Shown here: positions 2,635 to 56,135 of the stretch, piece after piece
How positions within the stretch are numbered: the first letter of the stretch is position 1
Layout: every line of letters starts with the position of its first letter
NCBI GenBank assembly: GCA_964187785.1
Contig: OZ076409.1
Coordinates: forward strand, 75,952,001 to 76,016,000
DNA: 64,000 nucleotides
From: Amphiscolops sp. MND2022
Taxonomy: Eukaryota
Direction of reading: 5' to 3'
The notes under the pieces: generated by a model
What the model saw: the letters and a program-made list of their open reading frames with translations, nothing else
Told to the model about the DNA's origin: nothing
The model's database searches: none
Made by a program: the position numbers and the translations under genes

Positions 2635-4029
2635 GTGGTCGGGTATTTTTTTTTACTCGTATATGACGTTTGCGAGGCTTTGGGGAGGGCCCCGTGCCGA
2701 GCCTGTACCGAAATTGGCCACATGTAGAAATCTGGCACTAAAATGCGAGATCTCAAAAAGTAGCCGTTAGAAATTTCTGAAAATTTGCATGTGGCTCTGA
2801 ATCAATGAGTAATGAAAAAGTGTAGAAGTGACTACCTCTGAAAAAATGGTCCTTGTTGCACTTTTTGCGCAATTTCTGTCGCATTGTTGCGTTTTTTATG
2901 TCATTTTCGACTTTGGAGGCAAAAAACTCATAGATGCTTTATTCCTAGCGTACCAAGTGTGGAGCAGGAAAAGTTGCAGCATCTTCAATAACGTATGCTG
3001 AGAAAATTTGGTTGCCCTCTGGTTACCCCCCACAGAGATAGAGGGGTGCTTCCGGTTACTTTTGACCCGCTAAATTTGGGAAACTGCTAATTTTCGTAAA
3101 GAAGCCGTAGATTTAGCGTGTCCACACCCTGCTGAAGTATTGTTAGGCATTTTAAGATAGATCCGATGACATGCGTTCAGTTCACCCCCCATCACCCCCT
3201 GGACCGGAAATGAATTTTTTTGTGTACTTTAAGACCGGAAGTCTCCATTTTCACCGGTAAGGAGTCCTTGTACGAGCAACTAGCAAGACATCAAAATTGA
3301 AGGAAAACCTGGGGTCAACTTAGTGACCACGTCTTGTCCAGTCATGGGTTCCGCTAAGACCGGAAATGGGGTCAAAACCCCCCTTTTGGTCGTTTTTTTA
3401 TCAGTTTGACCAGAGTTTTTTCCATGTTCAAGTCGCAATGCACATCAAACCAGTGTGAACATAAACTACATATTTATTAAGTAGACGTACCTGACACTGC
3501 CATATACCGGAAGTAACCCCCCTGACCGGAAGTTGTCAATTTTGACCAGAAATGGTCCAAAAAGTAGCGATAAATCAGTTTCTCACTGGTTTTTAGGTCA
3601 AGTTATTACTTTTTTTTCTTTCTTATTGTTTTTTTCCTACTGAAAAACATACTTTGTAGCTTGTTTGGCTAAAGTTCTGGAAAGGGATCACCTTTATCAC
3701 CCCCGATAGCCTTCCAAGTTGACCTTGGGTCAATCTTGAAGGCTATCAGTTCAGAAAACGAAAAATTGTGGAAATTGGGTTTCTCCTTTTTGTTGTAATT
3801 TTTTCCATAAAGTCAATATGTTAAATGAGGCTTTTGTTCACCTGAGTGATCTGAAACTTGTCCAGAGGTGTCACACACACTAATACCATTTCAAGTTGAA
3901 GTAAACATATGAGGGTAGTATTAGACAACATCACACACAATTACCAACGCCCACCGTCCGTGGGCATGCCGAGGCATGCCCTTCGACGACGTATGCCAAA
4001 TAGCGCCACAGGGCGCCCCTATTTGCTAG
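2635..4029 (+). mobile_element. Non-autonomous unit 3, family C (ACCGGAAGT-rich), 1395 bp
   Basis: Bounded by junctions. Related to 4030-5418 and to the first ~1 kb of 47462-49631. Confidence 0.75.
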
Positions 4030-5418
4030 GTGGTTGGGGCGGTCCCCAGAACGCACAAGGAGGCGCGGGGAGGGTCCTGCGCCGACGTAGAATAATTTCA
4101 TATAATACTAGTATCCTACATGGGTGTTTTAGAGGCGATTTTGGAATCTAACCGTAGGATTTGGATAATTTTTTGCATGCGGCCATAACTCGAAATTCTA
4201 AGAACTTTTTCCTACTGTCATTTTCCCCGCAAATTGTTTTTTGTTGACTTATGGCCGAAAAACCGGAAATAACGTCCTTTTTAGACGTTATATCCGAAGT
4301 GTCGTCATAACTTTTTTCCAGGGCATGCTAGCGTTCTCGTTCGCTTTTACACTTAGTTGCAGCATCTCAAAATACAACTGGTGGAAAATTTTGGTTGCAT
4401 TCGGATCACCCCCCACCGAGATAGAAGGGTTCCCCCCTCCAGTTTTACCCCCCAAATTTGCAAAATAGCCAATTTTGAGCATGAAGCCGAGGATTTAGCG
4501 TACCCGCACCCTCCTGATGTTTTGTTGTACGTATTGGGGTCAATCTGACGACTTGTGTGGTTTTCACCCCCAACCCCCCCTTGGAACGGAAATGACACTT
4601 TTTTGTGTTTTTTGGCAGAATTTAGCCTTTTTCATTATTAGGCAGTCGTTTTAGGGACTCCTAGCAGGATATCGAAATTGAAATACAACCTGATCACAAC
4701 CCAGTGACAATATGTTGGCCACTTGGAGGTATCATCATGACCGGAAGTGGGGTCAACCCCCCTTTTTGTGACCGCTTTTTGACCTTGTGCACCAAAATGC
4801 CAACATCTTGAGGCCTAATGAGGCATTCAAATCTGTACAAAGATAAAATGTTAGACAACCGAAGTCCCGGAAGATCTTTAGCATATACCGGAAGTTACCC
4901 CCCATGACCGGAAGTTACCAAATGTGACCGGAAATGGTCCAAAAATTAATGAAAAGTTGAATTTTTCACTATTTCAAGACCACTTAATTGAAACTTTTCA
5001 ATCTCAAAACTAGCGTACTGGCTTGTTTTGCTGAATTTATGGAAATTGATGAGCTCTATCGCCCCCGATAGCCTTCGAAGTTGACCTTGCGTCAACTTTG
5101 GAGGCTATCGATAAAGAAAAATGAACAACAAAGTACATTGTTTCTCTCGTTTTTTTCCCGTTGTTTTTCCTCAAACTTTCTTGTGACATATACATGGCCG
5201 TTAGTTGAAATCAATATTAAGCCCATGTTATAGCTGGAGCAGCGAAGCGTTACACAGACTAGTGTGGTTCTGAAATCACACTTTTTAAATTAACAACTGA
5301 CCGTCTTAGTCAACTCCACACATTCATACCAACGCCCACCGTCTGTGGGCATGCCGAGGCATGCCCTTCGACGACGTATGACGAATCCATTCCAACGACA
5401 CCCGCAGTCCTCAGCTAG
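4030..5418 (+). mobile_element. Non-autonomous unit 4, family C, 1389 bp
   Basis: Bounded by junctions. Shares the internal hairpin GATAGCCTTC...GGCTATC and ACCGGAA repeats with unit 3. Confidence 0.75.
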
Positions 5419-6692: not shown

Positions 6693-7832
6693 GTGCCGGG
6701 ATTTCTATTCGTTCAAGGATGTTGCGCGTGTGGGTAGGGCCCCTGGCGCGCTCTTTTATTTCGGGTACACCTACTCCAAATTCACGATGTGATTTCGACG
6801 ATCTCGTAAACTAGCCACACGATTTGGCTGAAATTTGGCACACAGCTCCGTTGGAACATTGTAAGAACAAATCCCTACTGACGTTTTGCCCGCTAAACAT
6901 TTTTTGTTGGTCAAAAATGCGATTTTCCGACAAAATTTTTGACTTTTTTTTCTTTTTCAACTCATATCTCGCCACAGGGTTACGCTAGCGCTTTGCAACC
7001 TATGATCCTTTTTTGTAGGGCATTGCATGTAGAACACGTATGCCAAATTTGGTGGCGATCGGACTTAAACTCAGGGAGATATAACGATTTTTTAGGTGCA
7101 TTTTTTGACATTTTTTGCTTTTGCTGATTTATCTTTGCCGTTTTTTGCCCAGATTTTTTTTGAGACACTCTCCTAAAGACCTCCCCTGGCCGGTTTACCT
7201 CCCAGCAAAACCATTTGGCCCTAAATACGAAGTTTCAGCGTTCTAGCATTCCCGGGCGAAAAGTTGTGGGACTTAGAATAATTTTTTGGAAACGCAAAAT
7301 GTGTAAAGTCAACTTCAGGCCTCCCAAAGTCAGGGAACTTCCACACAACTAGGATTGCAAGTGGATGCATGTGGAAAGTACTGGGATAGACGAGAAAAAT
7401 GAGCTATAGAACGACTCTGTAGCTTAACTTGACGTTGACTTATGACAATTTTAGTGTGAGCTTGCTAAGGGGTCCGAAAGTCAAAAATTGAAAATTGAGT
7501 TATTCCAAAGCAAATACTCCTTTATATAGGCTAATTAGGTATCAGTAACGTGAAACACGGTTGTACGGAGCGATTATTATCATAGGCGATACGGTTCGTT
7601 CAAAAAAATGTCCAAAAATTTTTTCTCTTTTTTCGTAGGTTTTTTGTCTAGGATTTTTTTCTTTGGTTTTTTCCTTAGGTTATAGGTGTAGGTTATAGAT
7701 TAGGCTTTTTCTAAGGTCCTGTTTTGCTTTCCCTGTTCACTGCATAGTTTGTTTTTAGTGGCAGAAGAAGACGACGACGACCAAGCATACGAGTTTTTCT
7801 TTTTTTTTCCTTGGGTTTTCTTCGGGTTAATG

Positions 7833-7930
7833 GCTATCCCGAAACCAGGTGCTCCTGCTCGAGGGCTTCTCGGGCGCTGGTTTCGTGTATGGGGCTTTCC
7901 CCCCCAGTAGGTAACCTCTGCCCAAATTTT
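7833..7930. other. Hairpin module, diverged copy (stem CGAAACCAG/CTGGTTTCG followed by CCCCCCCAGTAGGTAACCTCTGCCCAAATTTT)
   Basis: Perfect 9-bp inverted repeat at 7840-7848/7877-7885 with an inner stem. The 3' box is shared with the modules at 8557, 26228 and 26965. Confidence 0.5.
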
Positions 7931-8556
7931 CAAACGTCCCTCGTAATTCGCATTTTGCCGGTGTCTTTTTTTTACGGGCGTTTCGTCGAAAAAGATAGAA
8001 TTTTTCTCGGAACCGGCAAAATCGGAAAATCAATCACAAAATAAACGACGTCGAGAAATCAATCAGACTTAACGGCGTCCAGTTGCTACAAAGAAGAAGT
8101 ACAGATTAACCATGCTTCAGTTTCAGGTGCCAATCAATCAAGCTCAAGATGTCTTTTTTTGTAACTTATTAAATAGTCCATAAAATTATGGAAATTAGGA
8201 AAATTTTCAAAGGTTGGTTTTTTTTTGAAATTTAATGCAACTTATTAACATATGTGCCAAAGCTTTTGAAAGCATTAGGAGAAATCAATATAAAGTAAAC
8301 CAATATGCAGTTTAACTGTTCTAACTTCCTTCAGTTTTAGTTCACAGATGAAGATTCGCCGTAGCGATACGTAACGTTTTTTATCTAAATCGAATTTGCG
8401 GAGACTCAATCTGCCTATCGTTCGCACGGTCGTTATTGAGCATAAATTACGCTCATTGAAAAAGTGCGTGATCAGCGTCGTTCAATTTTTACGTGTAATT
8501 ATCATAGGTGCCCATATGTTAAATTGTAAGAATAGAGGTAATAGGTTTTCAAAATC

Positions 8557-8660
8557 CGGCTCATCAGAAGTTAGCTTGCGGCGTTATGCTGAAGGCCCTT
8601 CTGATGATGCTATGTCCCCCCTTTTTTAGTGGGTAACCTATGCCCAAATTTTTTTCCAGC
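8557..8660. ncRNA. Candidate structured RNA/ssDNA module, copy 1
   Basis: Stem TCATCAGAAG/CTTCTGATGA plus a small hairpin TGGGTA-ACCTA-TGCCCA. Conserved with compensatory changes at 26228 and 26965. Confidence 0.5.
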
Positions 8661-9274
8661 AATTTTTCCCAGCATTTTTGTTTTTTGTGAGTCTTAACCA
8701 AAATAATTTCTGATACATATTTTTGATTAAATATTACTTCTTAAAGTAGCTTTTCATTGAATGGTTTTAATACAATCAGAATTGTTTTTCCTTGTAAAGT
8801 TTTTTTGTAATATGAGTTTGTAACTGATGTACATGAGAATGAATTCCACCAATAAAAGACTCGAAACCTCTTGTACTGTATGTTTGATGTATGTTTATTT
8901 TATACTGAGAGTCAAGTAGGACATTACGTCTCTCGATCAAATCATAGATTTTCTTCGCTCTTTTATTTCGTTAATTGCTATTTTCCAAGTGGAACCGCTT
9001 CACACATTTGATTTTGCAAAGAAACATTGAACAAAGGTATTGTTTTAGCATATTTAGAATCAAAATTGAATTTTTCACGTTTGAAAGATTATAAGATTTA
9101 CAAGTTCTCTGATTTTATCCATCGTCTAAAACTTGATTGACTCGATTTTGGTAATTGTTCCAGTGGCGCTTCAACTATTAATTCGATTTCATTAGCCAAT
9201 TCGGTTGATCCGTATCAAATTTTAGTCCCAATGAGATACTGAAATGTTCAATTTCGTTTCATATTTTCAGGGAT

Positions 9275-12200
9275 ATGCCTCCAAGGAGAAATCGGAGTGT
9301 TAGAAACAAGTGCTCCCGGTGCCGTGTGTTTATCCCTCAGTCTTCGACTTTGTGTGCCAGTTGTGCATCTTCCTCCGCCGAGGTAACTCATGACAACGAA
9401 GACAGCAGCAGTGTTTCTATACCCAACGAAGACAACCCTCGGAACATAGTTTACCCTCCTCGTTGTACATTATGTGGATTACATGAACAGTCACAAGGCC
9501 AACTTTGTTGTTTTTGCTGTCCTGTTACTTTACCCGTTTGTACAGATGCAGAATGTCAAAAGTGCCGAAGAATTACCTGTTCATCACTGAATTCAATTTC
9601 TATGGCAGATGTAAAGCAGACCGCGTTTGGTTGCCGATTACCGGGAGAAGCATCTGATTTTGCAAGACTGTGCAACGAGTGTACTCATTACGCAACACAT
9701 GGCTTCCGATCGCCATGGAGGAATATTTGGCCATGCGTCGTTTTAGATTTCCTCAGTGGTAAATATAATGGAATTGCTGATGGAAAACCATTCCATAAAG
9801 TGTTGCCTACTTCTATTTTGGAACAATATCAACATCTGTTGCAGTTTAACACTGATGAAAAAGAGACTGTTTTTGCTGACCTGACACACAAACTGCTGGA
9901 ATTCAAAAGTTTAAAACAAAACCTCAACATTGATGGAGTGCAGAAAGCCCATAACAAGTACAGTTTTCCAGAAGTTCGCTGTCCTTTTGGTTGTACTGAG
10001 TTCGTTGGCGACACGGGATTAATACCCTTGCAATACTTTCTTCTGACGTTAGACAAAAACTTTGCTTTTAACGGAATGAAGTGGAAAAGGCGATTACGTT
10101 GTGTTCGACCAGATTGGTTGACCCCATACAATCACAATGATGCCTTCAACGTAAGACCACACATTGTTGTCGACGAGAAACAAGGACTGTGTCTTGCAAC
10201 CTGTAAATTCCACAACGGGGGATCGCACCAGTTTTTCGTCCATCCACCTACAAATCCCACTGGCAGATTACCCTCGAAAAATGCAGATCGTCTTGGTCCA
10301 GCTACAGTTAGTTATAACTGCTACAAACCAAGCAAGCCCAATTTTTCCACTCACACCTTTTCAATGGGTGTGGCTAAGGGTAATTTCTCCGGAATTAGTT
10401 CGACCACAATTGCCTGTAAGCGAAGGTGGGATATCGCATTTGGTGAAGATGACGTCGTAAGAGAGTCTCTTTGTTCAAACAAACGACAGGATATAAAACC
10501 GCTGTTACAAAAACTTGTGCACAAAGGAGAGTTATCACAGAATCTCTTTGATAGCATTACATCAATTGAAGGTTTGCCTGACGATCAAACAATTCTGGAA
10601 TGTTTGAAGACTGCTACATCCGTCCCTTTGGAGTTAGCTCTTGCATTAAAGAAAATTCAAGAAGAAGGATTAAATGTAAACTATTTTCCGGTATTCTCCC
10701 ATCCTTTCACAAAATACGGATGTGATCCACCTGACACAGTTGTAAACCAGTCAATGCCGAAATATTTATGGATTTATGCTGTAATGTTTGCTTTGAGTTG
10801 CAACTTCCATTTGTCTCTTTTGAAATTCATTTCAACAGATAGTGCCTTCAAAAATGTGTTCCATTTTATGCTGATTAATGATGGTAGACTGGCTGATAAA
10901 AAGAAACGAGAACTTGCAGAGTTCCTTCAACGTTATTCACAAGATCCTAGTTATGACATGGTTGACAGTTTGGAACAATTGCTAACAAACATATCTTTCG
11001 TCAAACACTTCAATGTAACTGACAGAGAAAGTGTTGAATCAATTTTGAAATCTCTGACCGATGACAAAATTGTAACTTTCATTACCAATGCAAGGAGAAG
11101 AGACGATGGTTACTTGCCGGATAGAGTGGTAACTACGAATGGGTCAACATCATACGAACTACGATCAATTGCTGTCACTGAGGGCGGCAACGTAAAAACA
11201 CTCGTTAGACATGGTAATGAATATAATTGTTGGTGGATATACTCTACAGCTCATGAGACTCCATCAAAAATGGGTCTTGAAGATCTGGTGGAGATGAACA
11301 AATTTCATTCTAGTTGGTTGTCCTGCCATTACGAGATCATTGGTTCAGTTGACATGCAGAGAGAAAAATACCAGTACTTGGAATATTTAGGAGGCCAAGG
11401 ACGATTCATTTGTGACGATCATCATGTCCCTCTTACAGTAGCCAGAAAAAATACTCCGACTCTTTGTTCGTTCAGTACCAGCTGTCAGCGAAAACCCGCT
11501 TGGAATTGCCCGTCGGAGAACTGCTTGTCGTCAGTCTGCCGTACTCATTTCGCACAACACCAGCTTAGCAATGAACGTTTCTTTGTCAAATGCCCCACTT
11601 CAAATTGTGACGTTGTTCCTCCACATTCTGCTGAATGTTGTGATGATGATGTAGTTGTTTCTGAACCCGAATCAGACTACGATGAATTTTCTTTTACAAA
11701 TTTCACAACCGACACTGGTCATGTTGAAAATATGACAAATTGTTGTGCTACTGATTCTGGAGACATGCCGTCAGTCGTTGACAGTGTTGACACATCAATT
11801 CCTGCCCATATTTTGCTAAACACTGATTGTCATGTACTAGAAAGGAAGAACTACAGAATTGACCGTTCCAAAACAAGTTCTCGATTTTTACAAAACATTG
11901 TCGCAAGATCATCTGGTAACTCCATCCCTCTCATTTACCCTGACGCAGCACTCTTCCCTACACATTATTATCATGAACAGACGGACAATACTATTACTGG
12001 CGCTGTTCCGGCTCCTCTCTTTTGTGATAAACAGAGCAAACACTTTCTCTTTGCAAGCATTGAGGATCATAAGCGATCAGCTGTTCTGAACCCAAATCTT
12101 TTGCAATCAACCGACGTTAGAAGTATTCAGACATCTTTCGACACCGTGCTGAATAAACGTCTCACTTTTTCCGATACACGTTTGGTTCTCAATCGAGGAT

Positions 12201-15200
12201 TCCAAGAAGTGACTGTGAAGACTTCCAAATCAATAACTCCAACTAATCCAAAACTTCAATTTGATCATGCTGATTCTAGAGTACGCGTAAATGAATTGGC
12301 CGCATTGTTGTCTAAAGAACCTGCTACATTTTTTCTGACACTCACTTGTAACCAGAAATATCACTTTGGGGTAGCACCAATTTTTGAAGCTATTGAAAAT
12401 CGATTCAACAGAAATAATAAACAAGAGTACGAGAGAGCAGTTCAAGCTGAGATGGTGCTACTAACAAGAGCTTGGTATAGATCAGCTGAAGCTTTAATGG
12501 AATGGATCGAAAAATCTCCCGACCAACCACTTGGAACTGTCACCAAAATTTGGTATCGCTATGAGTTCCAGTCTACCAAAGGGAACTTACCGCACATTCA
12601 TTGCGTCATATGGACAAAAGAAAGCAAAGCTGAATTACAACACAAGGTTTCATGCTCTGGATCATCAGCTTTATTCGAATTGAAAAAAATAGCAGCTGAA
12701 ACAAATGTAATTAATAGTGATCAAGTTTTCGATTTGTGGACTCAACTGATGACAATCCAAACTCACTCCTGCGAAAAGGCAAACTATCGCTGTCACAAAA
12801 TTGTCAAAGACGACGGGTCAACAATATGCAGAGTTCCCCGTTACCCGCATTCAAACCGATATTCCTGGAGAAAAGTCCCATCAAGCCATTCGGAAGAAGC
12901 ATTGCAAGTTCTTCATTACCTTGACTTGGCCACACCCTCGAAGTCTCATGACGATACCTTCGAAGTTTCAGAGAGTCTTCAAGGAGGCAAATTCGAATAC
13001 CCAGCTTCAAGTGACGAGCACCTTTCCCCTTTTAACCCACTTGTTTTCATCATTACGATGTCTTCGCAAAACCTTCAATTGTGTGACGAATACTTATCTG
13101 CAAGGTATATTGCAAAATATGCAGCAGGGATCGAAGAACGAGCTGATGCACGTGTTGATCCGGTTTCCTTCAATGAAATTAGAATTCACACTAAAGGAAT
13201 TAATAATTCGAAAATTTCCAGTTGCCGTATCAAAGAAAAAAGTACAGATAGAAAAACAATTGTTCAGATAATTCCTCTCGTTGAAACTGTTTGGTGGTTA
13301 TTGAGTTTCAAATATGTTCACAGTTCTGTTTCCTTCGTTCATTTATCGACTCTTGAAAAGTCAGAACGAACGTCTTTCATCACACCCAGAAAAAATACAA
13401 ACCCAACCCAGCCGTTACCTTTACATGTTACAAAAAGTTTCACTTTACCACTGTCGCGCCAATTCACCCAATCACAGTTGTTGGTTTTAAAAGATTCTAT
13501 GACAAGTGAGCATTCTAACTGCAAAATGACAGTTTTTAGCGGTAGGCCACCAGCGCTTTTGTGTGTTGATAACCCTCAACTGTATTTCACTTGGTTCAAC
13601 AGAGTTAATATTCGGCATCCCCAGGATACATTGAATCATGATGTTAACAATTCAAAATGGATAGACCTTTTCGGACGTGCTGTACACTTGAGACGTTGCT
13701 ATCTTGATGACTTTTCCACTTATGTCAACAATCTCAGAAGAGAGGGACATATCAACTTGTACCGATTCGATGAAGATACATCGATTTTGTTTCTACAAAA
13801 CGACTGTTTGGGATTGAAAACAATAGACGATTCTCCAGTTCAAGTTGTGACATCAAACATTGTGCCAAATAATCGTCGAAAATTTTTGGTGCACTTTGTT
13901 CTATCTAACGGGAAGTTTGAGACAGAACCAGATCTATTCAATCATCCTAGCATGATGGAGGTTTTCATCAACTGCAAGTTACTGCCATCAAAAAGTTCTT
14001 ATACACAACAAGATGCCTGTGATTTAGTGAAATTTTACGTTTTGTCGGAACTCAAATACCTTCCTGGGGCAAGCAGATCGTTCGATCGTCATTTGTTATG
14101 TTGTTACGACTTGATGACCAATCTTGTTCTTCATAACCAGATTCATTCCGAAGCTTTGCCCTCAACTCTTCATTCAGAAATAACCGAAAACGCTGAAATT
14201 GATTACATCCTCCACAGTAACGAAAAACGAGAGCGAAGTGTTCAAGGTTGCCTCTTAAATCCAGCTTTGATGCCATTGCAACCACACAAAGATTCTTTCG
14301 TCGCAGCCACCCGCAGTAACCCGTTTGTGTACAGTTTTCCGTTTCCTCGAGCTCCCGGACAGTCGGACGAATCAAACACTTTTCAACAACGTGTGTTCAA
14401 CGGGTGCATTCAGAAATTGACTAACTTTATTGAAACAAAAGACGGTTTCGTAAAACATCAATTGTTTTTGGGGCGTCCGGGAAGCGGCAAAACACTCATC
14501 TGCACAATGATATATCTGGAAGCTGTGGCGAAAGGTCTCAATTGTGCAGTAACTTGTCTAAGTGGAGAGCGAGCCCAACAACTCGGTGGCGAACATGTCC
14601 ACAAACTATTCAAGTTCAGAGTAAACAAAATACAGAATCCCGAAATAATGGCTTCCCAGAGTTTGAAAAGTCTTCTCAAGGATGTCACAAGGTTCACTGA
14701 GCTGGAACGCCTTGACGTACTTTTTATTGATGAAGTGGGCCAGCTGAATTCTGAATTGATGATAGCTATGGAAATTGTTCTACAATCTGTACGAGAAAAC
14801 AAACTGCCAATGGGAGGAATCTTCACAATCCTAACAGGAGATCCGAAGCAATTGCGCCCTCCACAAGGATCATTGACATGGTTGTCACCGAAGATGCTGA
14901 CAAATTTTGATTTCCACTACTTTAAACACTATGTTCGAGCAAAGCCTGGATTGTTGCGACAGATACTGACTAAATTAGATGAACTTGATATCAGCCCAAT
15001 CGAAGCATCAAATATTGCAAAGGAAATTGTAGCCAATTGTAATATCCATTCAACTTGGGACAATGTTGGTGACAACTTTGACATGCGTGTTTTCAGCACA
15101 CGAGCCGCTGAAAAACAGGCTGTTACACATCATTTTGAAAAAATTCTGGCTGACCAAAGTTGTGTAAATGTTGTGTTAACTGCTAATGATGAAGTGAGTT

Positions 15201-16258
15201 CTACTGGTGCATCAATTTGGCGTCCGGCAGGTGACATTGAACAAAAAATCATCGATTCCACATCCATCACTCCCCGACAACTGCTCTTGTATAAGAAAGC
15301 GCTTCTCAGATTTACAGCCAACCTCCCCAACATTCAGGCTAGGCAAGGACAATTGTGCCTAATTTTGGAAATACCAACCGAAACAGCATCTTCTCTGGAC
15401 GTTTGGATTGCACCACCAGGTTGCCGGACCGTCACAAATTTCGACGAAAATAACCTCATTACATCTGGTTGGCGCAAAGTCTCTATTTCAAAAGTGTTTA
15501 CACCTATAATGACTAACAACAACAAATTCCTAAGGAGATACTCTTTCCCTCTCAAGAACTATGTGGCATCCACTATTCACAAATGCATTGGTGACACGTT
15601 CCCAAAGATTGTTACCAAAGTTTCACTTACGGACAAACATTACAAAATTTGGGAAAAAGAGCAACTTCTTGTGTTGTTGAGTAGAGTCAGTAAGCTCGAC
15701 GACATAACGTTCGTAGGTGAAGAACACGAAATAGAATTAACTTTAACTGCTGCCATTCAGCAAAAGTCCTGCTGGGGAACTTTCATCAATAACCTTCTGG
15801 AAAAATTGGCCTGTACTCCCTCTGACCTGACGCCGCCAACACTCAACCTCCTTTCTTCAAATATTGTACCTTGGAACATTGTCTTACCCGAAGACAATGT
15901 AGGCTTTGTGTATCTTCTGGTAAGCACGAAGATTCCGAATGTTTATTTCATTGGAGAGGCTCTGGAAATTCGGCGAGAATTGAAAGTTATCAACTCTGGA
16001 AATGGCGCATCCGAAACACGCCCAATCGAACGAAGGCCATGGGCAATCTTAGCATTTGCAACAGGTTTCAACACCGAAGATTCTTCCAGCAACAATACGC
16101 AAAGAAAATCGCTTGTATCGAAGATGAGAACGCAATTTACTTCCCTTGGATTAAACTTCACCACCGTGGAATTGTTTGAAACGTTCAAAGAATCAACGAG
16201 AACATATGCTGACGAACGTGATCTAAATTTGAGAGTTATCCAGTGTGGCAGTGTTTAG
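9275..16258 (+). CDS. Helitron-like Rep-helicase transposase, 2327 aa: Cys-rich Zn-finger N-terminus, HUH-Y2 Rep, Pif1-family SF1B helicase, C-terminal SLX1-like GIY-YIG-type domain
   Basis: Rep motifs FFLTLTCN, YEFQSTKGNLPHIHCVIW and YIAKY. Helicase motifs GRPGSGKT, FIDEVGQL, GDPKQLRP, FPLKNYVASTIHKCIGDT and LLSRV. C-terminal GFVYLLVS...YFIGE...RPWAILAF. Acceptor-like TTTTCAG ends 4 nt before the ATG. Confidence 0.93.
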   Translation: MPPRRNRSVRNKCSRCRVFIPQSSTLCASCASSSAEVTHDNEDSSSVSIPNEDNPRNIVYPPRCTLCGLHEQSQGQLCCFCCPVTLPVCTDAECQKCRRITCSSLNSISMADVKQTAFGCRLPGEASDFARLCNECTHYATHGFRSPWRNIWPCVVLDFLSGKYNGIADGKPFHKVLPTSILEQYQHLLQFNTDEKETVFADLTHKLLEFKSLKQNLNIDGVQKAHNKYSFPEVRCPFGCTEFVGDTGLIPLQYFLLTLDKNFAFNGMKWKRRLRCVRPDWLTPYNHNDAFNVRPHIVVDEKQGLCLATCKFHNGGSHQFFVHPPTNPTGRLPSKNADRLGPATVSYNCYKPSKPNFSTHTFSMGVAKGNFSGISSTTIACKRRWDIAFGEDDVVRESLCSNKRQDIKPLLQKLVHKGELSQNLFDSITSIEGLPDDQTILECLKTATSVPLELALALKKIQEEGLNVNYFPVFSHPFTKYGCDPPDTVVNQSMPKYLWIYAVMFALSCNFHLSLLKFISTDSAFKNVFHFMLINDGRLADKKKRELAEFLQRYSQDPSYDMVDSLEQLLTNISFVKHFNVTDRESVESILKSLTDDKIVTFITNARRRDDGYLPDRVVTTNGSTSYELRSIAVTEGGNVKTLVRHGNEYNCWWIYSTAHETPSKMGLEDLVEMNKFHSSWLSCHYEIIGSVDMQREKYQYLEYLGGQGRFICDDHHVPLTVARKNTPTLCSFSTSCQRKPAWNCPSENCLSSVCRTHFAQHQLSNERFFVKCPTSNCDVVPPHSAECCDDDVVVSEPESDYDEFSFTNFTTDTGHVENMTNCCATDSGDMPSVVDSVDTSIPAHILLNTDCHVLERKNYRIDRSKTSSRFLQNIVARSSGNSIPLIYPDAALFPTHYYHEQTDNTITGAVPAPLFCDKQSKHFLFASIEDHKRSAVLNPNLLQSTDVRSIQTSFDTVLNKRLTFSDTRLVLNRGFQEVTVKTSKSITPTNPKLQFDHADSRVRVNELAALLSKEPATFFLTLTCNQKYHFGVAPIFEAIENRFNRNNKQEYERAVQAEMVLLTRAWYRSAEALMEWIEKSPDQPLGTVTKIWYRYEFQSTKGNLPHIHCVIWTKESKAELQHKVSCSGSSALFELKKIAAETNVINSDQVFDLWTQLMTIQTHSCEKANYRCHKIVKDDGSTICRVPRYPHSNRYSWRKVPSSHSEEALQVLHYLDLATPSKSHDDTFEVSESLQGGKFEYPASSDEHLSPFNPLVFIITMSSQNLQLCDEYLSARYIAKYAAGIEERADARVDPVSFNEIRIHTKGINNSKISSCRIKEKSTDRKTIVQIIPLVETVWWLLSFKYVHSSVSFVHLSTLEKSERTSFITPRKNTNPTQPLPLHVTKSFTLPLSRQFTQSQLLVLKDSMTSEHSNCKMTVFSGRPPALLCVDNPQLYFTWFNRVNIRHPQDTLNHDVNNSKWIDLFGRAVHLRRCYLDDFSTYVNNLRREGHINLYRFDEDTSILFLQNDCLGLKTIDDSPVQVVTSNIVPNNRRKFLVHFVLSNGKFETEPDLFNHPSMMEVFINCKLLPSKSSYTQQDACDLVKFYVLSELKYLPGASRSFDRHLLCCYDLMTNLVLHNQIHSEALPSTLHSEITENAEIDYILHSNEKRERSVQGCLLNPALMPLQPHKDSFVAATRSNPFVYSFPFPRAPGQSDESNTFQQRVFNGCIQKLTNFIETKDGFVKHQLFLGRPGSGKTLICTMIYLEAVAKGLNCAVTCLSGERAQQLGGEHVHKLFKFRVNKIQNPEIMASQSLKSLLKDVTRFTELERLDVLFIDEVGQLNSELMIAMEIVLQSVRENKLPMGGIFTILTGDPKQLRPPQGSLTWLSPKMLTNFDFHYFKHYVRAKPGLLRQILTKLDELDISPIEASNIAKEIVANCNIHSTWDNVGDNFDMRVFSTRAAEKQAVTHHFEKILADQSCVNVVLTANDEVSSTGASIWRPAGDIEQKIIDSTSITPRQLLLYKKALLRFTANLPNIQARQGQLCLILEIPTETASSLDVWIAPPGCRTVTNFDENNLITSGWRKVSISKVFTPIMTNNNKFLRRYSFPLKNYVASTIHKCIGDTFPKIVTKVSLTDKHYKIWEKEQLLVLLSRVSKLDDITFVGEEHEIELTLTAAIQQKSCWGTFINNLLEKLACTPSDLTPPTLNLLSSNIVPWNIVLPEDNVGFVYLLVSTKIPNVYFIGEALEIRRELKVINSGNGASETRPIERRPWAILAFATGFNTEDSSSNNTQRKSLVSKMRTQFTSLGLNFTTVELFETFKESTRTYADERDLNLRVIQCGSV

Positions 16259-16818
16259 TTCATTTGGGTTTACAAATATTACACTGTAGAAGTCTCTGAG
16301 AATGGACGATAGATGAAGCATGTGAGGTTGCCCCGGCCACGCAGTGAGCCGAGGGCAAGCTTTATTCAAACTATAGATGAACATCCTTTTTTGTTGAAAA
16401 GTTCTTTGATTATACTTTGCCTTTGCTCATTTTTTCAACGTTCCTTTGTAAATATATACTGATAAAATTGTCACCCGTTGATAATATTACCAGTTGACAC
16501 TGAAGTTGACACCAGTCAAGAAAAAAAATATTTATCTGACTGGAACAAAAAAAGACAAAAAAAACAAGATGGCAAGATTGTTGAAACAGTTCAATTCTTC
16601 AACTTCGATAATCTTTTCCTTAACATATTTTTACCATCACGTGGAGGGAAATAGAAAAACATTTCTACAGTTAATTAGTTCGAAAGAGAAAAATTAGACA
16701 GTATTTAGACGCAGTAGTGATGTTGTACATCGAAAGAAATGAAAATGTGTCGAGAAACATAACTTTATTGTGTTTTTAGATAGCTTTGTCTTCAATCGAG
16801 ACTGAAACAAGATTCAAA

Positions 16819-18209
16819 ATGCCCATCATTAATAAAGATTTGTCGGCAGATGAGGCAGCCACCAGAACAATCAGTAAATTAACAACGTGTGAACTCGATG
16901 AAGTGATGGAATCTAATGCAACGGATCGGAAGTACATGATTTGTACATTGCTTTACGCCAAAAAATGTGTGAAATCAGTATCGTATTTTAAACTAACGAA
17001 TGGACAAAAGCAAAAACAGGAGGCTACATTTAACCGTTTTGTCCTTCTGGGAGTGATCGGAAAAGAGAAAGTAATGGCAATATTTACCTACACCCAACTA
17101 GAAAGCGCGGAGTTGTTGCGTTACTGTTCTGCATTACAACCAGGAAATGCGTGCGCCTTAATACGCCCTAAATTCGATAACAAGTATATGGGATCATCAT
17201 CCACTACCCCAATCATACTAACTTCTGAGCCACTTGTGCCTCTGAACATCAAGAATTACCCTGATGTCAGCTGTCCAAGAATTGTATCATCACCGGACTT
17301 TCAACATTTCTACATGAAAACGAAAGATTTGAAGCTCGATAATATAGATGCCATTGGAAACGTGTGCAATGGGACCTTCTGCGATGGTCAACCGAAGGGC
17401 GACTGTCCTTGTTTAGAGGTCGACAACCGGAAAAGCAGCTGGATCATTACTGCGGATGTGAAATGCAGTGGGTTGTATCACTCATCAAAAATACGATCAA
17501 AACGATTGATAACGGTATTCGCTCCCAAATGTAAGTCGGCGGACCCTAACAAAAGAGAATTTGATGTCCTTGATTTGGGCGATTGTATTGAAAACTGTGT
17601 TGAAGCAGTAAATGCCAAGAATGGATGGGAAATTTTCGGTTGGGTGAAACCAAACGAATCTGCTCTAGAGTTTACAAACTATGAATGCGACCTACACATT
17701 ATACATCTTCAACCTATCGAAATTACAGATGTAGAGTCAGGTAAACCTAAAATTCAAATATTTATTTTTCCAGTTTTTACTTTCTTTTTTCGCTAAAGTT
17801 CTAATTAATTTTCGACCAAAATATGTCTAGCAGAATCAAAATATACATTTTAACAGAATCTCAAACACAACGTTTAGTGTTATTAACAATTGTTTTCGCA
17901 AAAGACATGAACATTAATTTCACCTTGAACTATTATTTTACAACTTGAGACTAAAACTTACAGTCTTTCTTTTTTTCCCAACGTTATTTTTAAGATGACC
18001 GATAATTGACAAATGATAAATATACTTCAGATGCATACAAAGCCTTGCAGTATAAGTTGCCCGAAACATCTGCCCCAGAAGTCGAAATGCCCGTCATAGC
18101 AACTTCATCAGGAACAGCTTCGGTTCCAGCAACAGCTCCAGCAACAGCTCCAGAAACAGCTCCAGCAACAGCTCCACCAGATGAACAAGCAGCTTCGGTT
18201 GAAAGATGA
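16819..18209 (+). CDS. Partner gene of element 1, uncharacterised Cys-rich protein; exons ~16819-17740 and 18031-18209
   Basis: Homologous to 37704-38767 (TFNRFVLLG, CNGTFCDGQ..CPC, GWVKP). A phase-1 GT..AG intron at 17741-18030 joins the two ORFs in frame. Low-complexity PATA tail. Confidence 0.8.
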
Positions 18210-18742
18210 AAATCGCATTATCAACTACGAAAAATGCAGAAATCAAGAGAAGTGACAATGAGCAAAAAACATTGATAGATTTAAAAATCTCGAAACATTT
18301 TGATTCAATAATGTTATAATGTGATCATAAAAAGATTGCAGAAAAAATAATCTTGAAACCGGTAAAAGATTATAAATATCGTATTGTTATGTTCCTTTAG
18401 TTCATATTCTTGAAATAATGTTAATTTGTTATTTTCAAGAAATAAAAATTCACTTTTTCGTTCCCACAAGAAACTTGAATAGAGTGTTCATAGAAAAAAT
18501 ACGTATGTTCATAGACTAGTCAATATTTTCAATACAAATATCTGAACTAGTCAAAATACTAATCTTTTCTTTGCTTTCACTCTGGTATGACATTTGCTAA
18601 ACGTTTGGTCCTTACAACATACACATGACTAACGTCAACGCCACATACTGTTACCAACGCCCACCGTCCGTAGGCATGCCGAGGCATGCCTTTCGACGAC
18701 GTATGCCAAATACCATAAAACCGACGCGCACTCTCCCGCTAG

Positions 18743-25098: not shown

Positions 25099-26227
25099 GT
25101 GGCCGTGTCTTTTCGACGTGCTTTTGCATTGAGGAGTGGGTAGGGCCCCGCGACGACCTAGAAGAATTGGATGCTCACCGAAACGTGCAGAATTCTACGA
25201 GATCTCATAGTTTGAGCCATACGATTTTTCTGAAATTTGGCATGTGGCCTGGAATTGGTGAGTAGGTAAAACGTGTAGGAGGTGATTTTTCCCAAATTCC
25301 ACTGTGAGAGGAGATATGGGCAAATAACGGACCCAAAAATGGCAAAAATGCACTTTTTTCAACTTTGTCAGCCAATATCTCTTTTCCAGGTGTCCGTAGC
25401 GTTCCGCACGTGGACATCAATATTGCTCCGCGCTGTTGGAGGAGTGCGTGGACAAATTTTGGTTTAAATCGGACTTAAACTTGACGAGAAATTAACGGTT
25501 TTTTGGGCGTTTCCGGGGTAAATTTTTTAACGGTCCAGCTTATCTTTGCCATTTTTTCGAAAATGTACATGCCTAAAGGCCTCCCCCTGGCCGAATTTAC
25601 TCCCAGCAAACCCATTTGGCCCTAAATACGGAGTTTCAGCGTTCCAGCATTCCGGGGCGGAAAGTTGTGGGACTTGGAAAAATTTCAAAATTTTTTCAAA
25701 AATTTTTTTTCCCGTTTTCCGGGCCCCCAATGAAGGGGAACGACCCCCCAACCAGTATTTTGAGTGAATTCATGTGGAACGCCCATGTTTGGAGGAGAAA
25801 AATGTCGTTTAGAACGTCTTTTTATAGTAACTTGACATTAAAATTTTTTATTTGAGGCGGCACGTAAGGGATGACTGGGACGAAGTCTCAAATTTTATTT
25901 TAAAAGTATATGAGAAATATAGCGAGACAAACTCAAACAAGAAAAAAATGTGTAATTTTTGATTCGAGGGTTAGAGGAGACAGTTTGAAGCATCCTCTGG
26001 AAAAAAATCTTATCCTTTGATGACTTACTTTTTTGTTTCGCTTAGAATATCGAAAATTGGTTACTCGTTTCGCAGCAATTATGAAACCGTAACTCCATTT
26101 CGAGTAACAGAACAGAATACAGAACCCAGGGATAAAATTAGGTCGTTTTCCACGGCCAGTTTCCATGGGTGGTTTAAATGTTTTCCAAACATCTTTGTGG
26201 TAATTGGGGTTATTGGTTTTTTGAAAT

Positions 26228-26330
26228 CCGGCTCATCAGGAGTTAGCTTGCGGCGTTATGCTGAAGGCCCTCCTGATGAAGCTATGTCCCCCCTTTTTTC
26301 CGTGGGTAACCTATGCCCAAATTTTTTCCA
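26228..26330. ncRNA. Candidate structured RNA/ssDNA module, copy 2
   Basis: Stem TCATCAGGAG/CTCCTGATGA, compensatory relative to copy 1. Confidence 0.5.
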
Positions 26331-26964
26331 GGCAATTTTTTCCAGCATTTTGCTAATTTTTAGTGTCTTCTCAAAATTTTTTTTGATTCAATTTTTGAAT
26401 TGTTTTATCAGGTAGAATGTGATTTTATAGTCTAAAATTTTTCAATATGTTATTAAATGTGATGATTATGTTTATAAATTCAACGAATAAAAAAGTTCTG
26501 TTGTGCTGAACGAATGAAAACGAATCTATTGTGCTAAATATTTGGTGTAAGCTTGTTTTATACTGAAAGTTAAGTTGTTGAAATTCTACTCAAAAACTTG
26601 CATTTAAAATGATACAGCCAACCCTATCAAACCTGATTTTTTCTTCAAAGTTATCGGTTACTGGAGCATCCTTGATTATAAACTGGGATTGTTTGATGTA
26701 TTGCAAGACAATGTTTTAATGGGAAAAAAGTTTGAATGAAAAATCGATTTTTGTTAAGGTAGGAACTGGGGTTAAAATTTTTTTCGAAAAAAAAACGTCA
26801 AAATTTGGATTGAGCCATAATGTGGCAGTCCTTCATGTAGACTATTTGGTCACATATTTTACCTTCTATTTTCCCCAATTTTTCGCCATATATACGGTTT
26901 CTGTAGCATTCAGTTTGAAGAAAAGTTTTGTGATTGTGGTATATGTTTTATGGGATTAAAATTA

Positions 26965-27065
26965 CGGCTCATCAAGAGTTAGCTTGCGGCGTTATGCTGA
27001 AGGCCCTCTTGATGATGCTATGTCCCCCCTTTTTTCAGTGGGTAACCTATGCCCAAAATTTTACC
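26965..27065. ncRNA. Candidate structured RNA/ssDNA module, copy 3
   Basis: Stem TCATCAAGAG/CTCTTGATGA, compensatory relative to copies 1 and 2. Confidence 0.5.
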
Positions 27066-27710
27066 AAGCAAATTTTTCCAGTATTTTTGAATTTTTATAT
27101 TTAAGTATATTTAAAACTTCGATGAAGAAATCATATTTTAAAGTTCATATTGGTGTGCATAATCATAATTCATTTATTATCGATATTTTTATTGTAAATT
27201 TTAAATGTTTTACCCTGATGCCCACAAAAAGTGTCTTTCATAACAAGTTTTATGGAATGGTCGCATATCTTTTAAAGTCAATAATAATAATAGTTAATTG
27301 TTTAGAGAAAAATGGATTTTGACAGATGTATGTATATTTTATACTGAGAGTCAAGAAGGATTAAAGATTATGTTTATTACCTTTTGTTTCCGCGGATACA
27401 ATAAATTTTGGGTAGTTTCTTGCGGAATACTTTGCGTTCAGGTCGGTACAACTAAAATAGAATGATCGTCAATCGAAAAATCGTGGAAGCGTGAAATTCA
27501 ATTTTCAAAAAAATTAATTTAATTGAATAGTCGTATTTAAAAATTTAATAGTCGTAATTTTGCGCACAGTATTTTGGTATGTTCCACAAAAGTTTTGGAC
27601 CTCGTGAATTTGTTTTTACGTTTCGCAAAAAATAGCGTTTTTGCAGTTCAATTTCAATGTATACAATTGAGTTTGGAACGTAGTAATTCGTTTATTTATT
27701 TTCAGTGCAC

Positions 27711-28761
27711 ATGTTGAGCAAATTTCTAAAGTTGTGGTTACTGCGAAGTGGGATAGAGTGGAATCCCGGACCCAAGCGCAAAGTGAGGAAAAAATGTGCA
27801 AAGTGCCAACAATTTGTTACTTCTTCTGGTTTATGTAATACGTGTGATTACAATCCATCTTTGCAAGTTTTTGAAGGAGTGCCTCCAATTGCCCAAACCT
27901 CGTCTATGCAAGACGTTGAAGATGCACCTGGACCTGAAGTCCAAACTTCCACTACACAAGTAGAATTAGCAGAAACACATTTTGTTGACCCCTCTCAAGA
28001 AGCTGCAAGTTTGGCCTTGTATCGTCATATAAATTCTGCCTTTACGATTAATGCAGCAGGTATTCCCAATTTGCTTGAGGCTGGTTTCGTTTTTGGCTAC
28101 TTCGATTCTCCCAGACCTACCGTGTTTTCCCACACAGATAACAATTTATTGAATTACCAAATTGCAGAATTACAGAATGTTGGTGGTGACGGAGCTTGTT
28201 TGTTTAATGTGTTTTCGCTCCTACTGTTCGGCAATGAGACTGCTGCTGGCAACATCAGAAGGAAGATTTGTGACGTTATGCCAACCATTGCATTCCCACT
28301 CGGAACGTTGTTTTCAAATGGTAAAGTGTGCACGACTGTTGAAGAATACCTACAATCCAGCAGCATGCGATATCGATATGCCTACGGAGGAGATGCAGAA
28401 GTTGCTACGTTTTGCAGTTTGACAAATTTATCTGTAATAGTTTTTGTAGCAACTATTAATGCATGGGTTGTCTACAAGGATATCCAATCGGAAGAATCAC
28501 ATGAAACAGGTCCACATGTTTTCTTGTATCTCGAAGGAAACCATTTTCAGCTTGTGAAAATGATGAATTTCATTGGAAACACTGCCGTAATTGATGTCAA
28601 CGTTCCCACAACCATAAATGTACCAGAGACGATAATATCTTCACCTTCGCGGTCTTGTTTTTTGACTGCTATCCCCAACACTTTTAGCTGTCCAACTTCA
28701 ATCGCCCCTGTCATTCAAAATGAACCAACCAAGCAGTCGCCGGTTTTCAACGCTACTCAAG
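27711..28761 (+). CDS. Element 2 Rep-helicase exon 1: 2A-like motif, Zn knuckle, OTU cysteine protease domain
   Basis: LLRSGIEWNPGP, CAKC..CNTC, and OTU motifs GDGACLF, YGGDAE, GNHF. Acceptor TTTTCAG at 27705 precedes ATG 27711. Donor G|GTAATG at 28762. Confidence 0.85.
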
Positions 28762-28984
28762 GTAATGAATTGTTACAAATTAAACAAAACGTTTTTGTAA
28801 AGATAATTCAAAACAATACCTATTTCGTATATGGAAAAAAATTAGGCATGAAATGATCGTTTGGGAGTAGCAAATTTACACACAATTTGAATTTATAAGA
28901 ATTTAAAAAACTAGGAAGATTTTTAGCCTGAGGTTGAGAATTCAAAAAACTTACTTTGTTTCTGTTAATTAAATGTTGTTTCAG

Positions 28985-31900
28985 CTGAAGAACAATTGCC
29001 ATTTACCGATGGTGTTTGCTATCAATTCAATCAGCCTTCATTCAAAGAAGTAAAACAGTTCAAGAACTTTGATGTGGACTGTCCTTCAGCAAACCTGAAT
29101 GATTTAGATTGGAACGATATTGTCGATACAACTGAAATGTGTGCAAAATGTGCGAGAACTTCAACAACTTTCTATCCTTTGACATTTGTTACCATTGATA
29201 ATTCGTTAGTAAAGAAGAGAAAATATGGAAAACAAATAAGAAGATTCAGTCAGCGTGTTTGCCATGATTGCAACACATATTTAACATGTTCAAAGCCACA
29301 ATGGGAACACTCATGGCCAGCAGTTCTTTTTACATTTGCTTTCTCAAAAAATATTTCAAAGTACTTAGATCGAAATCAAAAGTTTTACAGCATTCTTCCT
29401 TATCAAATTCAAACGTCTTGGCTAGCTTATGCAAAAACAATTTGGCCGGAAGTGATTTTCACGCCATTGTTTCGTGATTTGACAAACAATATAAAGCATT
29501 TCCATCAGTTGATACGAACCACAAAAGCGAATGATTACATCAAGGCAATGAACTGCTACAGCTTTCCATCCATTCGTTGTTTTTGCGGCGCTTCTACCCA
29601 TCTTGATTCTTGCGGATTTGTTTCATTCAAACACCTTCTCAATTATTTGGACGAGGAATTCATTTCATTCGGAGCTAATTATAAGTCCAATCTTATGGCT
29701 ATTCGATATGATTTCTTTCAAATTTGTGATTCTCGTATTGTATTTGAATTGAGGCCTGCAGTTGTCTCTGATAGTCGAGGATTGATGCTTCTGACATGTC
29801 AACACCACAATTCCGGTTCAAAGATGCGAATGGTTCACGTACCTCGACATCCTTTAGTTGGTAACTTGTCTCATCCCCACGCTGATCGTATGGCGCCTGT
29901 AGCTTCGTCATTCAGAGAAGCAACACCGATGAAACTTGGAAACTTTTCAAATACATGGTCTTTATCAAAATCAGTACATGGTAAAGACGGTGCTGGTTCT
30001 CTTGTGTTACATTCTGAACGTAACTTGTGTGTTAAGAGTCAGTCGCTTTTGCCAGCTCTTGAATCAGTTCACCTAAACAACAGGAATGACATGGTTCACG
30101 TTGTGGGACAAATTGCTCAGGAAAACTTCCTCCCACCGACATTTGTAAAAAACCTATTTCGACAATACAAAGCTCCTGATTTACCTGCCTGTTTAGATGC
30201 TGCAACAATCATTCCCCAATCAACAACAAACAAGTTGAAAACGTTTTATGAAACTACAACTTCTGTGGAAAACAATGTTCTTAAATTCAAAAAATTGTGT
30301 GTAGTTGATTCCTGTACACAGCATACAATGATGCGACTTGTATACCCCGACGAATGCCTCATTAAACAAGATTCAAAAGTTGCAACTCTTGTTTTCTTTT
30401 TCCTGAATTGTCCCTTATTTGCAAATGTCTTCATTTCCAATAACATATCGCCTTCACTGGAGAAGTTATTTAACATTATTTTAAAAACCAAAGATCAAAG
30501 AACGAAACTAAATCTCCTGCAAAATTTACTCACGTCGTTTTACGGCGATCTGCAAATGCCAGCAAACGCAAACTTTTCAACATTTATCACATGTTTCATA
30601 CATTCCCTGAATAATCCAACTTTCGTGGTGGTTACATCGTTGGATTTGTTTCATGAAATCGATGGAAAACCTGATGTTGTGTTCATTGCCCCTTTTGAAT
30701 CAAGAACAAAAATACCAGATTCTATTACTTCACGGAAAAGTAATGATATTTATCAAGTTATGGCAGTGCATGGAGGCACTTTTGGACGTGGTGTTTTTTA
30801 CTACAGTAATCACGGCTTTTTTTGGAAAGTCAATCTGGATACAAAAAAGTTCGAATTGAGTAGTTTGCCTGAAAAAAGTCGCAGAGTTGATTTTGCCCTT
30901 CTCGTCCGATCTGACCAACAAGAATCACCTGTTTACGGATACCCTTCTGAAATAGGACATGTAGCATGTCCTGAACACAAAAAACCATTCTGCATTGAAG
31001 TTTCCAATTCAAGATTCCTCTGTTCTTACAATGTATCTTGCATATGTAAAGTTGCATGGAGATGTCCGAATATTGATTGTGGTTTCTCCTTGTGTAAAAA
31101 ACATTACCAAAACTATGAAGAAGCAAATACTTCCTTGATACAGCGTTGTAAAACAGAATTGAATTTTCATGCTCCAACGGGTTCTGTTTCTTCTGAATTT
31201 CACTTGGACACTGACGCCGGATCAACATCAGTGAGTCTTGACTTTGAGGATAATTTACAAGGTGAAGTTGTGTCTATGCATGCACTACTGAACCATTTGA
31301 CATCAGTTTTGCGACGAAATGATCCAATACAAGCAACAAAAAGCCTTAAAAGGTTTTTCCAACGTTTTCTCTGCACACATTCTTCATCATCATCTTCGCT
31401 TGTTCAGTTGGAGGCATTACTTTTCCCGTCAATATTTTATTACCAGTTACACGATGGATCTTACCCAGGAGCGATTCCTTTTTTTCTTTACGGGAACGAA
31501 AAAGATTGTTCTGAATTTGGATTTGATAGTTTGTTGTTACACTTCAGAACAAGAATAAATGATCCTACGTTACTGACTTCATCTAACGCAAAGTATTTAC
31601 AGTTCGCCGCTGACACTCTCCTGAACTTGAATTTGAGAGGAAAACACACAAAATCGTACATCCAACGCGGACTCCAGAGTATTGAGCTTGATAAGAACGT
31701 TGGTCGCTCTAAAAGCAGCTGCAACCAGTTCTCATCAGATACAGAAATGCGTGTCGACGAGCTGGGATCGGCTATGAGAACAAATCCTTTGACTTTGTTT
31801 GTTACATTATCCTGCAATCAGAAAAGTCATCCAGGTGTTGCACCTCTCAAACAAGCAATGGATTTTAATTTCAACGACGCAACACTTGAAGAACGAAAGA

Positions 31901-33976: not shown

Positions 33977-34059
33977 GTAAGTTGTTCAACTTTTTTAAAA
34001 AATGTAAAAGTCGTTGAAGCCTTTTAATTGAAAAATAATATTTTATAATTTTTTAACAG

Positions 34060-55995: not shown

Positions 55996-56135
55996 GTGTA
56001 AAAACTATTCAATGTGCTGTTGCAACAAAAAGTAAACTACAATTATATAAAACAAGTTTGACTGCAACTACATTGGTCGAAACTTGAAATACTCTAAACA
56101 ACCCAATTATTTTTTTGTTTAACGAGAACCAAACA

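Follow-up and report, generated by a model that had tools for sequence, protein, structure and literature searches.

The closest described relatives of the elements analysed here are Helitron-like elements (HLEs). Published accounts describe the ends of the HLE1 and HLE2 groups and the capture of OTU, RPA and GIY-YIG domains by HLEs (PMC11417382), the use of one strand, dsDNA circles, a terminator hairpin and tandem arrays in Helitrons (PMC5876387), a promoter 5' of the ORF, a spliced transposase and a usual spacing of 10–15 nt between the 3' hairpin and the element end (PMC13286980), and again Helitron arrays (PMC12001565); a separate Paramecium clade is also on record, with no bearing on the present locus shown (PMC13085455). 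A structured internal RNA, a leader module or a ribozyme of a Helitron was not met in the literature searched, most subscription papers lying outside the reach of that search.

The window, by which we mean the whole 64-kb stretch of DNA analysed, is occupied over its first 53.4 kb (80–53437) by an array whose start falls beyond the window and which holds 22 complete units; these are arranged head-to-tail with CTAG/GTG junctions and comprise 20 short units and two long coding elements, A and B. The short units measure 1.26–1.40 kb in 19 of 20 cases and 2.17 kb in the remaining one, which resembles a fusion of two unit types; 17 of the 20 fall between 1.26 and 1.29 kb, although their sequence is mosaic and several subfamilies are present in the one array. 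The divergent short units at 2635–5418 and 47462–48460 carry repeated ACCGGAAGT words, which we take to be ETS-like. Just past the array end lies a LINE with an APE endonuclease and a reverse transcriptase (55180–58511), which together with the introns points to a eukaryotic and probably animal source. The main parts of the two coding elements are as follows.

6693–18742, plus strand: coding Helitron-like element A, with GTG start and CTAG end
9257–16258, plus strand: RepHel of element A, an ORF of 2327 aa, and the strong splice acceptor before it, whose AG ends at 9270
16786–17796, plus strand: partner ORF of A, 31% identical to the partner of B (37704–38537; gene span to 38750)
18672–18742, plus strand: right end of A, a 20-nt palindrome followed by CTAG, common to all units
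25099–39814, plus strand: coding Helitron-like element B, with GTG start and CTAG end
27692–35810, plus strand: RepHel gene of B, with an acceptor (AG ends at 27705) and three inferred exons (OTU-like, Rep, helicase)

In a Pfam scan, A has PF14214 (Rep) and PF05970 (PIF1 helicase) both above cut-off, and B has PF05970 above and PF14214 just below cut-off, in separate ORFs; both host elements have the combination of Rep (HUH) and PIF1 helicase that marks Helitron-like elements. The RepHel proteins of A and B are only 26% identical, and despite this the array units are mosaics with common ends. A weak GIY-YIG match (E 0.026) is present at the C-terminus of RepHel A (15800–16255), and among 21 close RepHel homologs in ENA proteins, 10 of which were scanned, GIY-YIG was above cut-off in 5/10 and OTU sub-threshold in 2/10. 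The partner genes of A and B are homologous, spliced and share a Cys-rich motif; they gave zero Pfam matches, and their look-alikes are OB-fold proteins of the POT1/CTC1/RPA type (0.90–0.92, with a low recognition score), which we treat as a lead only. The first coding exon of B (27711–27773) has what we take to be a 2A-like start, ending in GIEWNPGP and missing the usual Asp; counterparts of this stretch are GVEWNPGP in the metagenomic relative L007 (1273–1332) and NIEKNPGP in P0018, and A is without one. The two elements share with HLE1/HLE2 (Helraiser; PMC11417382, PMC5876387) Rep and PIF1 helicase, the palindrome plus CTAG, and head-to-tail arrays with short derivatives, and with HLEs in general the OTU-like, GIY-YIG-like and OB-like extras. 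The 3' hairpin and CTRR end are likewise those of HLE1, but the palindrome, which with CTAG is found at 23/23 unit ends, lies farther off here (about 45–50 nt before CTAG, versus 10–15 nt). Furthermore, the junction is CTAG/GTG and not CTAG/TC, and the 5' TC start is absent, so the elements are not canonical HLE1.

A further difference from the described systems, as far as the literature searched shows, is a module of about 100 nt in the leader of RepHel, for which the following copies and associated islands were delimited.

8557–8655, plus strand: copy 1 of the module, in slot 2 of element A at +1866, with a 21-bp hairpin (8558–8611), a C/T tract, a 6-bp hairpin with GGTAACC, and AAATTTT
26229–26328, plus strand: copy 2, in slot 1 of element B at +1132, in which the AG after the C/T tract is missing
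26965–27064, plus strand: copy 3, in slot 2 of element B at +1868
7832–7933, plus strand: copy 4, diverged, in slot 1 of element A at +1140 (16.6 bits, E 0.026)
8886–8921, no strand assigned: conserved island about 340 nt on from copy 1, with donor-like GTATGT on the plus strand
26529–26575, no strand assigned: island after copy 2, with donor-like GTAAGC at 26547
27325–27360, no strand assigned: island after copy 3, identical to the A island at 34/36 nt

A first reading made from the sequence alone had noted a motif at 8557, 26228 and 26965 that is conserved while its flanks and the encoded proteins are not, and this is borne out, with the second start moved to 26229. Over 100 nt the three close copies are pairwise identical at 0.93/0.91/0.94, and the distant flanks are at shuffle level: in 100-nt bins from −300 to −100 and from +200 to +400, identity is 0.39–0.52 against 0.44–0.48 for shuffles, with slightly raised values (0.48–0.63) in the bins adjoining the module. 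Saturation of the flanks extends to copies 2 and 3, although these two lie inside the same element. A 26-nt core has three exact matches in the window, a number reached in 0/100 shuffles. The fourth, diverged copy goes beyond the earlier reading and gives each coding element two slots at matched offsets, spaced by about 730 nt and situated between the common left end and the RepHel acceptor (offsets +2578 in A and +2607 in B). It was recovered with a covariance model built from the three close copies, which gave 51 matches at E ≤ 10 of which only copy 4 and reverse-strand self-matches were notable. The tail of copy 4 equals that of copy 1 at 19/21 nt and the C-run is kept; its long hairpin has another sequence, a similar shape, the same GCU/GGC upper stem and a 5-nt loop. 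GGTAAC is invariant in 4/4 copies inside the predicted stem of the small hairpin, and a T6 run follows the hairpin in 3/4 copies, copy 4 being without the T run and retaining the tail. The conservation evidence consists of these three close copies and one diverged copy in a single 64-kb window.

The predicted plus-strand fold consists of a 21-bp hairpin, which is interrupted by a 3x1 internal loop and a G-A mismatch, then a C/T linker and a second hairpin of 6 bp; the two loops and the inner stem are invariant among the three close copies. These copies agree in 25 of the 27 stem pairs, differ in two pairs on both sides, and break none (0/81 cells), and the earlier statement that differences in the main stem are compensatory was therefore correct. 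When five random substitutions were simulated in the hairpin, at least two compensated pairs arose in 1 of 10,000 runs, a simulation that leaves out arm-to-arm template switching, which is an established mutational mechanism in which one event can yield a compensated pair; 54/500 shuffles reached the observed covariation, a control that is weak with three rows. Covariation by itself does not prove RNA, because the terminal palindrome has a like double-sided change (G-C to A-T) in 4/23 copies. Structure-keeping, double-sided changes are also found in hairpins of the short units and of the termini, and the stems of the left-end hairpins differ between subfamilies.

The strand, which the sequence-only reading had left undetermined, can be narrowed to plus by the better fold of the three close copies. 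For the whole module, folding z-scores of copies 1–3 are −3.1, −2.4 and −2.9 on the plus strand and −1.8, −1.8 and −1.2 on the minus strand; for the hairpin alone they are −4.3 to −4.5 and −3.4 to −3.7, respectively, with 0/500 shuffles reaching the plus-strand value in any of the three. Four G-U pairs on the plus strand become A-C on the minus strand, and these G-U pairs favour the plus strand. Folding of copy 4 is weakly significant (z −2.6, −2.1 and −1.2 in three runs). The preference for the plus strand suits a sense RNA and a displaced single-stranded plus DNA equally, and the module also folds as DNA, at −14 to −15 kcal/mol. Taken together, the data support a real, constrained, structured element that is under selection and tied to the coding elements.

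This tie is seen in the short units. The long hairpin is missing from 20/20 of them, a query with the copy-1 hairpin giving nothing above shuffle level, and the earlier notion of a structured module belonging to the autonomous elements thus stands. The claim that the whole module is absent from short units needs to be divided, as it holds for the long hairpin but not for the 3' tail, of which a diverged counterpart exists: a query with the copy-4 tail beat all 60 shuffles in 4/20 short units (z 3.5–6.1), three of the four at about +480 from the unit start, and reached z 3.3 in a fifth unit, not above all 60 shuffles. The copy-1 tail beat shuffles in 2/20. For the minus strand, the idea that short units repeat the whole tail received little support (1/20 beating shuffles, z 2.8). 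At its end the tail has a TGCC(C)AAATT box with 13 plus-strand and 16 minus-strand matches among the units across the window. Leader sequence common to 18/20 short units ends at +580 to +806, in every case before the first module slot (+1132), and the other two short units share nothing detectable. Two short units have a 45-nt hairpin in common (3705–3748 and 5066–5111; z −6 and −10), which is stronger than the module hairpin and lies at an offset of about +1050, near that of the first module slot; a link between this hairpin and the module was not significant (z −1.2 and 1.1).

How could the module function? We tentatively favour, while giving it somewhat less than even chances, a role in cis at the RNA level: as a structure in the sense-strand leader, the module would regulate processing of the RepHel pre-mRNA and limit transposase output. 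The strongest argument comes from the short units, which retain about 750 nt on the left and the right end and multiply although the hairpin is missing; it is therefore dispensable for mobilisation, which points to gene expression, a task of coding elements only. The pairing constraint implies a folded single strand, which a duplex promoter would not require. Both RepHel ORFs start just past a strong acceptor, ranking 2 of 132 (A) and 4 of 123 (B) among the AG sites and situated directly before each ORF; the arrangement suggests that the leader is probably spliced and transcribed across both slots. The matching slot offsets in two elements whose RepHel proteins have diverged so far also argue for this reading.

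According to the proposed mechanism, transcription would start in or near the common left end and run through both slots. The 3' arm of the long stem holds a YUGAU word, which we take to be branch-point-like and which precedes a pyrimidine tract with AG by 25–26 nt; the donor-like GGUAAC would be presented by the small hairpin. Folding, or a bound protein, could mask or expose these splice signals and thereby set the share of the transcript that is spliced onto the RepHel acceptor, and the outcome would be a throttled transposase production. This splice-masking mechanism in particular is decidedly doubtful. The C/T tract ends in AG in 3/4 copies (copy 2 being without), and, judged with splice-site matrices that are untrained approximations, for copy 3 this AG has rank 2 of 123, for copy 4 rank 8 of 132, and for copy 1 it falls outside the top 10. 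By the same approximate matrices, the GTAAC donor ranks 2 of 150 in copy 4 but is weak in the close copies (22 of 150, 25 and 23 of 162), and inferred donors of the coding region score 7.9–9.3 in 3/4 cases and 1.1 in the fourth. Further points against it are that the T-rich leaders are rich in acceptor-like sites, 3–30% of 698 windows matching the downstream ones and copy 4 having none, and that a trial spliced leader carries 7 (A) or about 13 (B) ATGs before the RepHel start. Against the cis RNA reading as a whole, double-sided changes are also found in other hairpins of the array, the tail resembles the box of the short units, the downstream island has an Inr/TATA-like reading on the minus strand, and the relative L007 shows no module within 1.27 kb upstream.

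A known system to which such a leader element could be compared is the third-intron silencer of the P element, a splicing-control element in transposase pre-mRNA. This is what the module would most likely work like, limiting transposase in cis through an RNA element that contains words resembling splice sites. The module departs from it in lying in non-coding DNA, in being present twice and strongly base-paired, and in having splice words that are only partly conserved.

It is possible, though on balance doubtful, that the module instead acts at the DNA level, as a hairpin of the displaced plus strand or as a cluster of protein-binding sites for RepHel, the OB-like partner or a host primase or other factor, needed by long or coding elements only and serving second-strand priming or feedback binding near the promoter. 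The plus strand is also the strand that Helitrons peel off, and use of a single strand has been described for them (PMC5876387); the module folds as DNA as well. Other hairpins with conserved structure in these elements, namely the terminal palindrome, the left-end hairpins and the 45-nt hairpin, occur where a DNA function is expected. The TGCC(C)AAATT box is present on both strands, and the small tail hairpin resembles the terminal palindrome by eye. It is also like the right-end terminator hairpin of Helitrons, a plus-strand hairpin kept by double-sided changes, in its GTRGG...TGCCC...AAAT arrangement. In contrast to that terminator, the module lies internally, before the gene on its 5' side; its length is about fivefold greater, it contains internal loops, no CTRR follows it and it is absent from short units. 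Against a DNA-level signal, none of the 20 amplified short units has the long hairpin, the minus-strand likeness of the whole tail is weak, and in Helraiser the terminal sequences suffice in cis (PMC5876387).

A stand-alone small non-coding RNA gene, present in duplicate and with the RepHel message or host silencing as its target in trans, appears quite unlikely, whether as a Pol III-like 70-nt hairpin ending at T6, as an RNA of spliced-leader type or as an antisense RNA transcribed from the TCAGTATAAAA island. It would account for the compact conserved unit, which recurs at ~730 nt and is accompanied by a second island, and the islands, which lie 330–370 nt past each of the three close copies and are lacking after copy 4, read TCAGTATAAAA on the minus strand, presumably an Inr/TATA-like word, in all three. 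The T6 run after the hairpin in 3/4 copies and the donor-like GGUAAC in the stem would also fit; in a spliced-leader test, the GGTAAC donor was in the predicted stem in 4/4 copies, with a weak score in 3/4. The run of T residues is missing in copy 4, which keeps a tail that a terminator would leave untranscribed. With short descriptors, made by us or following a general consensus, box A/box B of a type 2 Pol III gene (tRNA, vault, SINE heads) and the RUGAUGA...CUGA order of box C/D snoRNAs were each found in 0/8 copy-strand searches, and an Sm site (RAU4-6GR) 3' of the donor on the plus strand in none of the four copies, two Sm-like words on the minus strand standing at different places. ARAGORN returned 0 tRNA matches, and a SECIS element was indicated in 1/8, not conserved. 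Searching Rfam 15 over the 64 kb, a check proposed with the earlier verdict that the family was unrecognised, confirmed that verdict, with 0 matches at gathering threshold; at E ≤ 10 the best matches reached 11–18 bits, all far under their thresholds, with no ribozyme family among them.

The last point also bears on catalysis. A self-cleaving ribozyme of an undescribed class, which would cut array read-through transcripts and free the RepHel unit or a ~730-nt inter-copy RNA, is in our view improbable. Invariant loops combined with a variable yet compensated stem, and a direct tandem pair in a mobile element whose array yields read-through by construction, would be in keeping with it. So would an analogy to the 5' ribozymes of retroelements, HDV-like in R2 and hammerheads in Penelope elements and retrozymes, with which the module shares a compact structured form, a tandem context and a position close to the 5' end of its mobile element. 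It differs from them in lacking the catalytic cores and in residing in a DNA transposon without reverse transcriptase; no covarying pseudoknot was seen in the module, and cleavage would uncap the mRNA. A ribozyme of a known class is not supported. The hammerhead core consists of an unpaired CUGAnGA, stem II, GAAA, stem III and NUH around a three-way junction; here, the core words are inconsistent among copies and strands (CUGAUGA is stem-paired, reads UUGAUGA in copy 3 and is absent in copy 4), and the conserved GAAA is missing. An HDV-like ribozyme, with our own descriptor, and twister, twister-sister, pistol, hatchet and hairpin ribozymes, with similarly short descriptors, were found in 0/8 copy-strand searches each, again with no Rfam match. 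It would be a long shot to propose a new catalytic or regulatory RNA class of a eukaryotic DNA transposon, in which the tandem pair processes array read-through and so chooses the RepHel-making units.

There is similarly little to recommend the view that the module is a functionless passenger repeat or captured fragment spread by recombination or gene conversion, with stem changes produced by arm-to-arm template switching. The mosaic units with common ends would allow for it, and only 10.5 kb of the window is non-array DNA. On the other hand, 4/4 copies lie at matched offsets in two leaders, flank saturation holds for copies 2 and 3 of one element too, no convincing target-site duplication surrounds the module (the longest flank words in common are 5–8 nt, all T-rich), and no similarity to the LINE was found. 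The relative L007, which would count in favour of a passenger, has a RepHel 54% identical to that of B and the same OTU-like first exon, and its 1.27 kb of available upstream sequence gave no module (best E 7.7); the corresponding span in B takes in copy 3. The module is therefore perhaps lineage-specific and may have been passed between co-resident elements by exchange, like their ends. RepHel relatives with DNA numbered 0/23 among viral, 1/167 among metagenome (L007) and 1/49 among genome candidates (L008, coding only); the last is a relative with 34% identity at 3–2510 of a 2.5-kb contig in a bacterial MAG titled Candidatus Poribacteria, and this contig is probably host DNA contamination. 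A 17-nt tail pattern matched six viral loci, whose upstream DNA has neither a C-run nor module similarity and which look like chance. The 21-nt core pattern outside the window, a gapped tail pattern in prokaryote genomes and blastn of the module in phages and plasmids each gave 0 matches, and no module homolog was found in the viral, prokaryote, phage and plasmid collections, which hold few eukaryote sequences, so that this blank says little.

Two further readings can be dismissed briefly. Fanzors have reportedly been found in some Helitrons (PMC3627910; 10.1101/2023.06.13.544871), and OMEGA/Fanzor guide RNAs are, as the module may be, structured RNAs encoded by their element, but no TnpB, Fanzor or IscB Pfam domain is present in the 11 ORFs scanned and the module is 5' internal and not at the element 3' end, so the earlier suggestion of a guide-like RNA finds no support. 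A coding micro-ORF or peptide is contradicted by stops in most frames, a 1-nt indel, and stem changes that are all non-synonymous in the longest frame.

Helitrons have been described by their DNA ends and by RepHel, and how transposase is limited inside an array filled with parasites is a wider question. A 100-nt module, repeated twice in each of two coding elements that are only 26% alike, offers a direct handle on it for structure probing, mutation and cleavage assays. If the module acts as RNA, a DNA transposon would harbour an RNA family that is not yet catalogued; an action as DNA would make it an internal cis signal that is missing from current Helitron models; and if it were catalytic, a Helitron would carry a ribozyme-like RNA, of which the literature searched showed no example.
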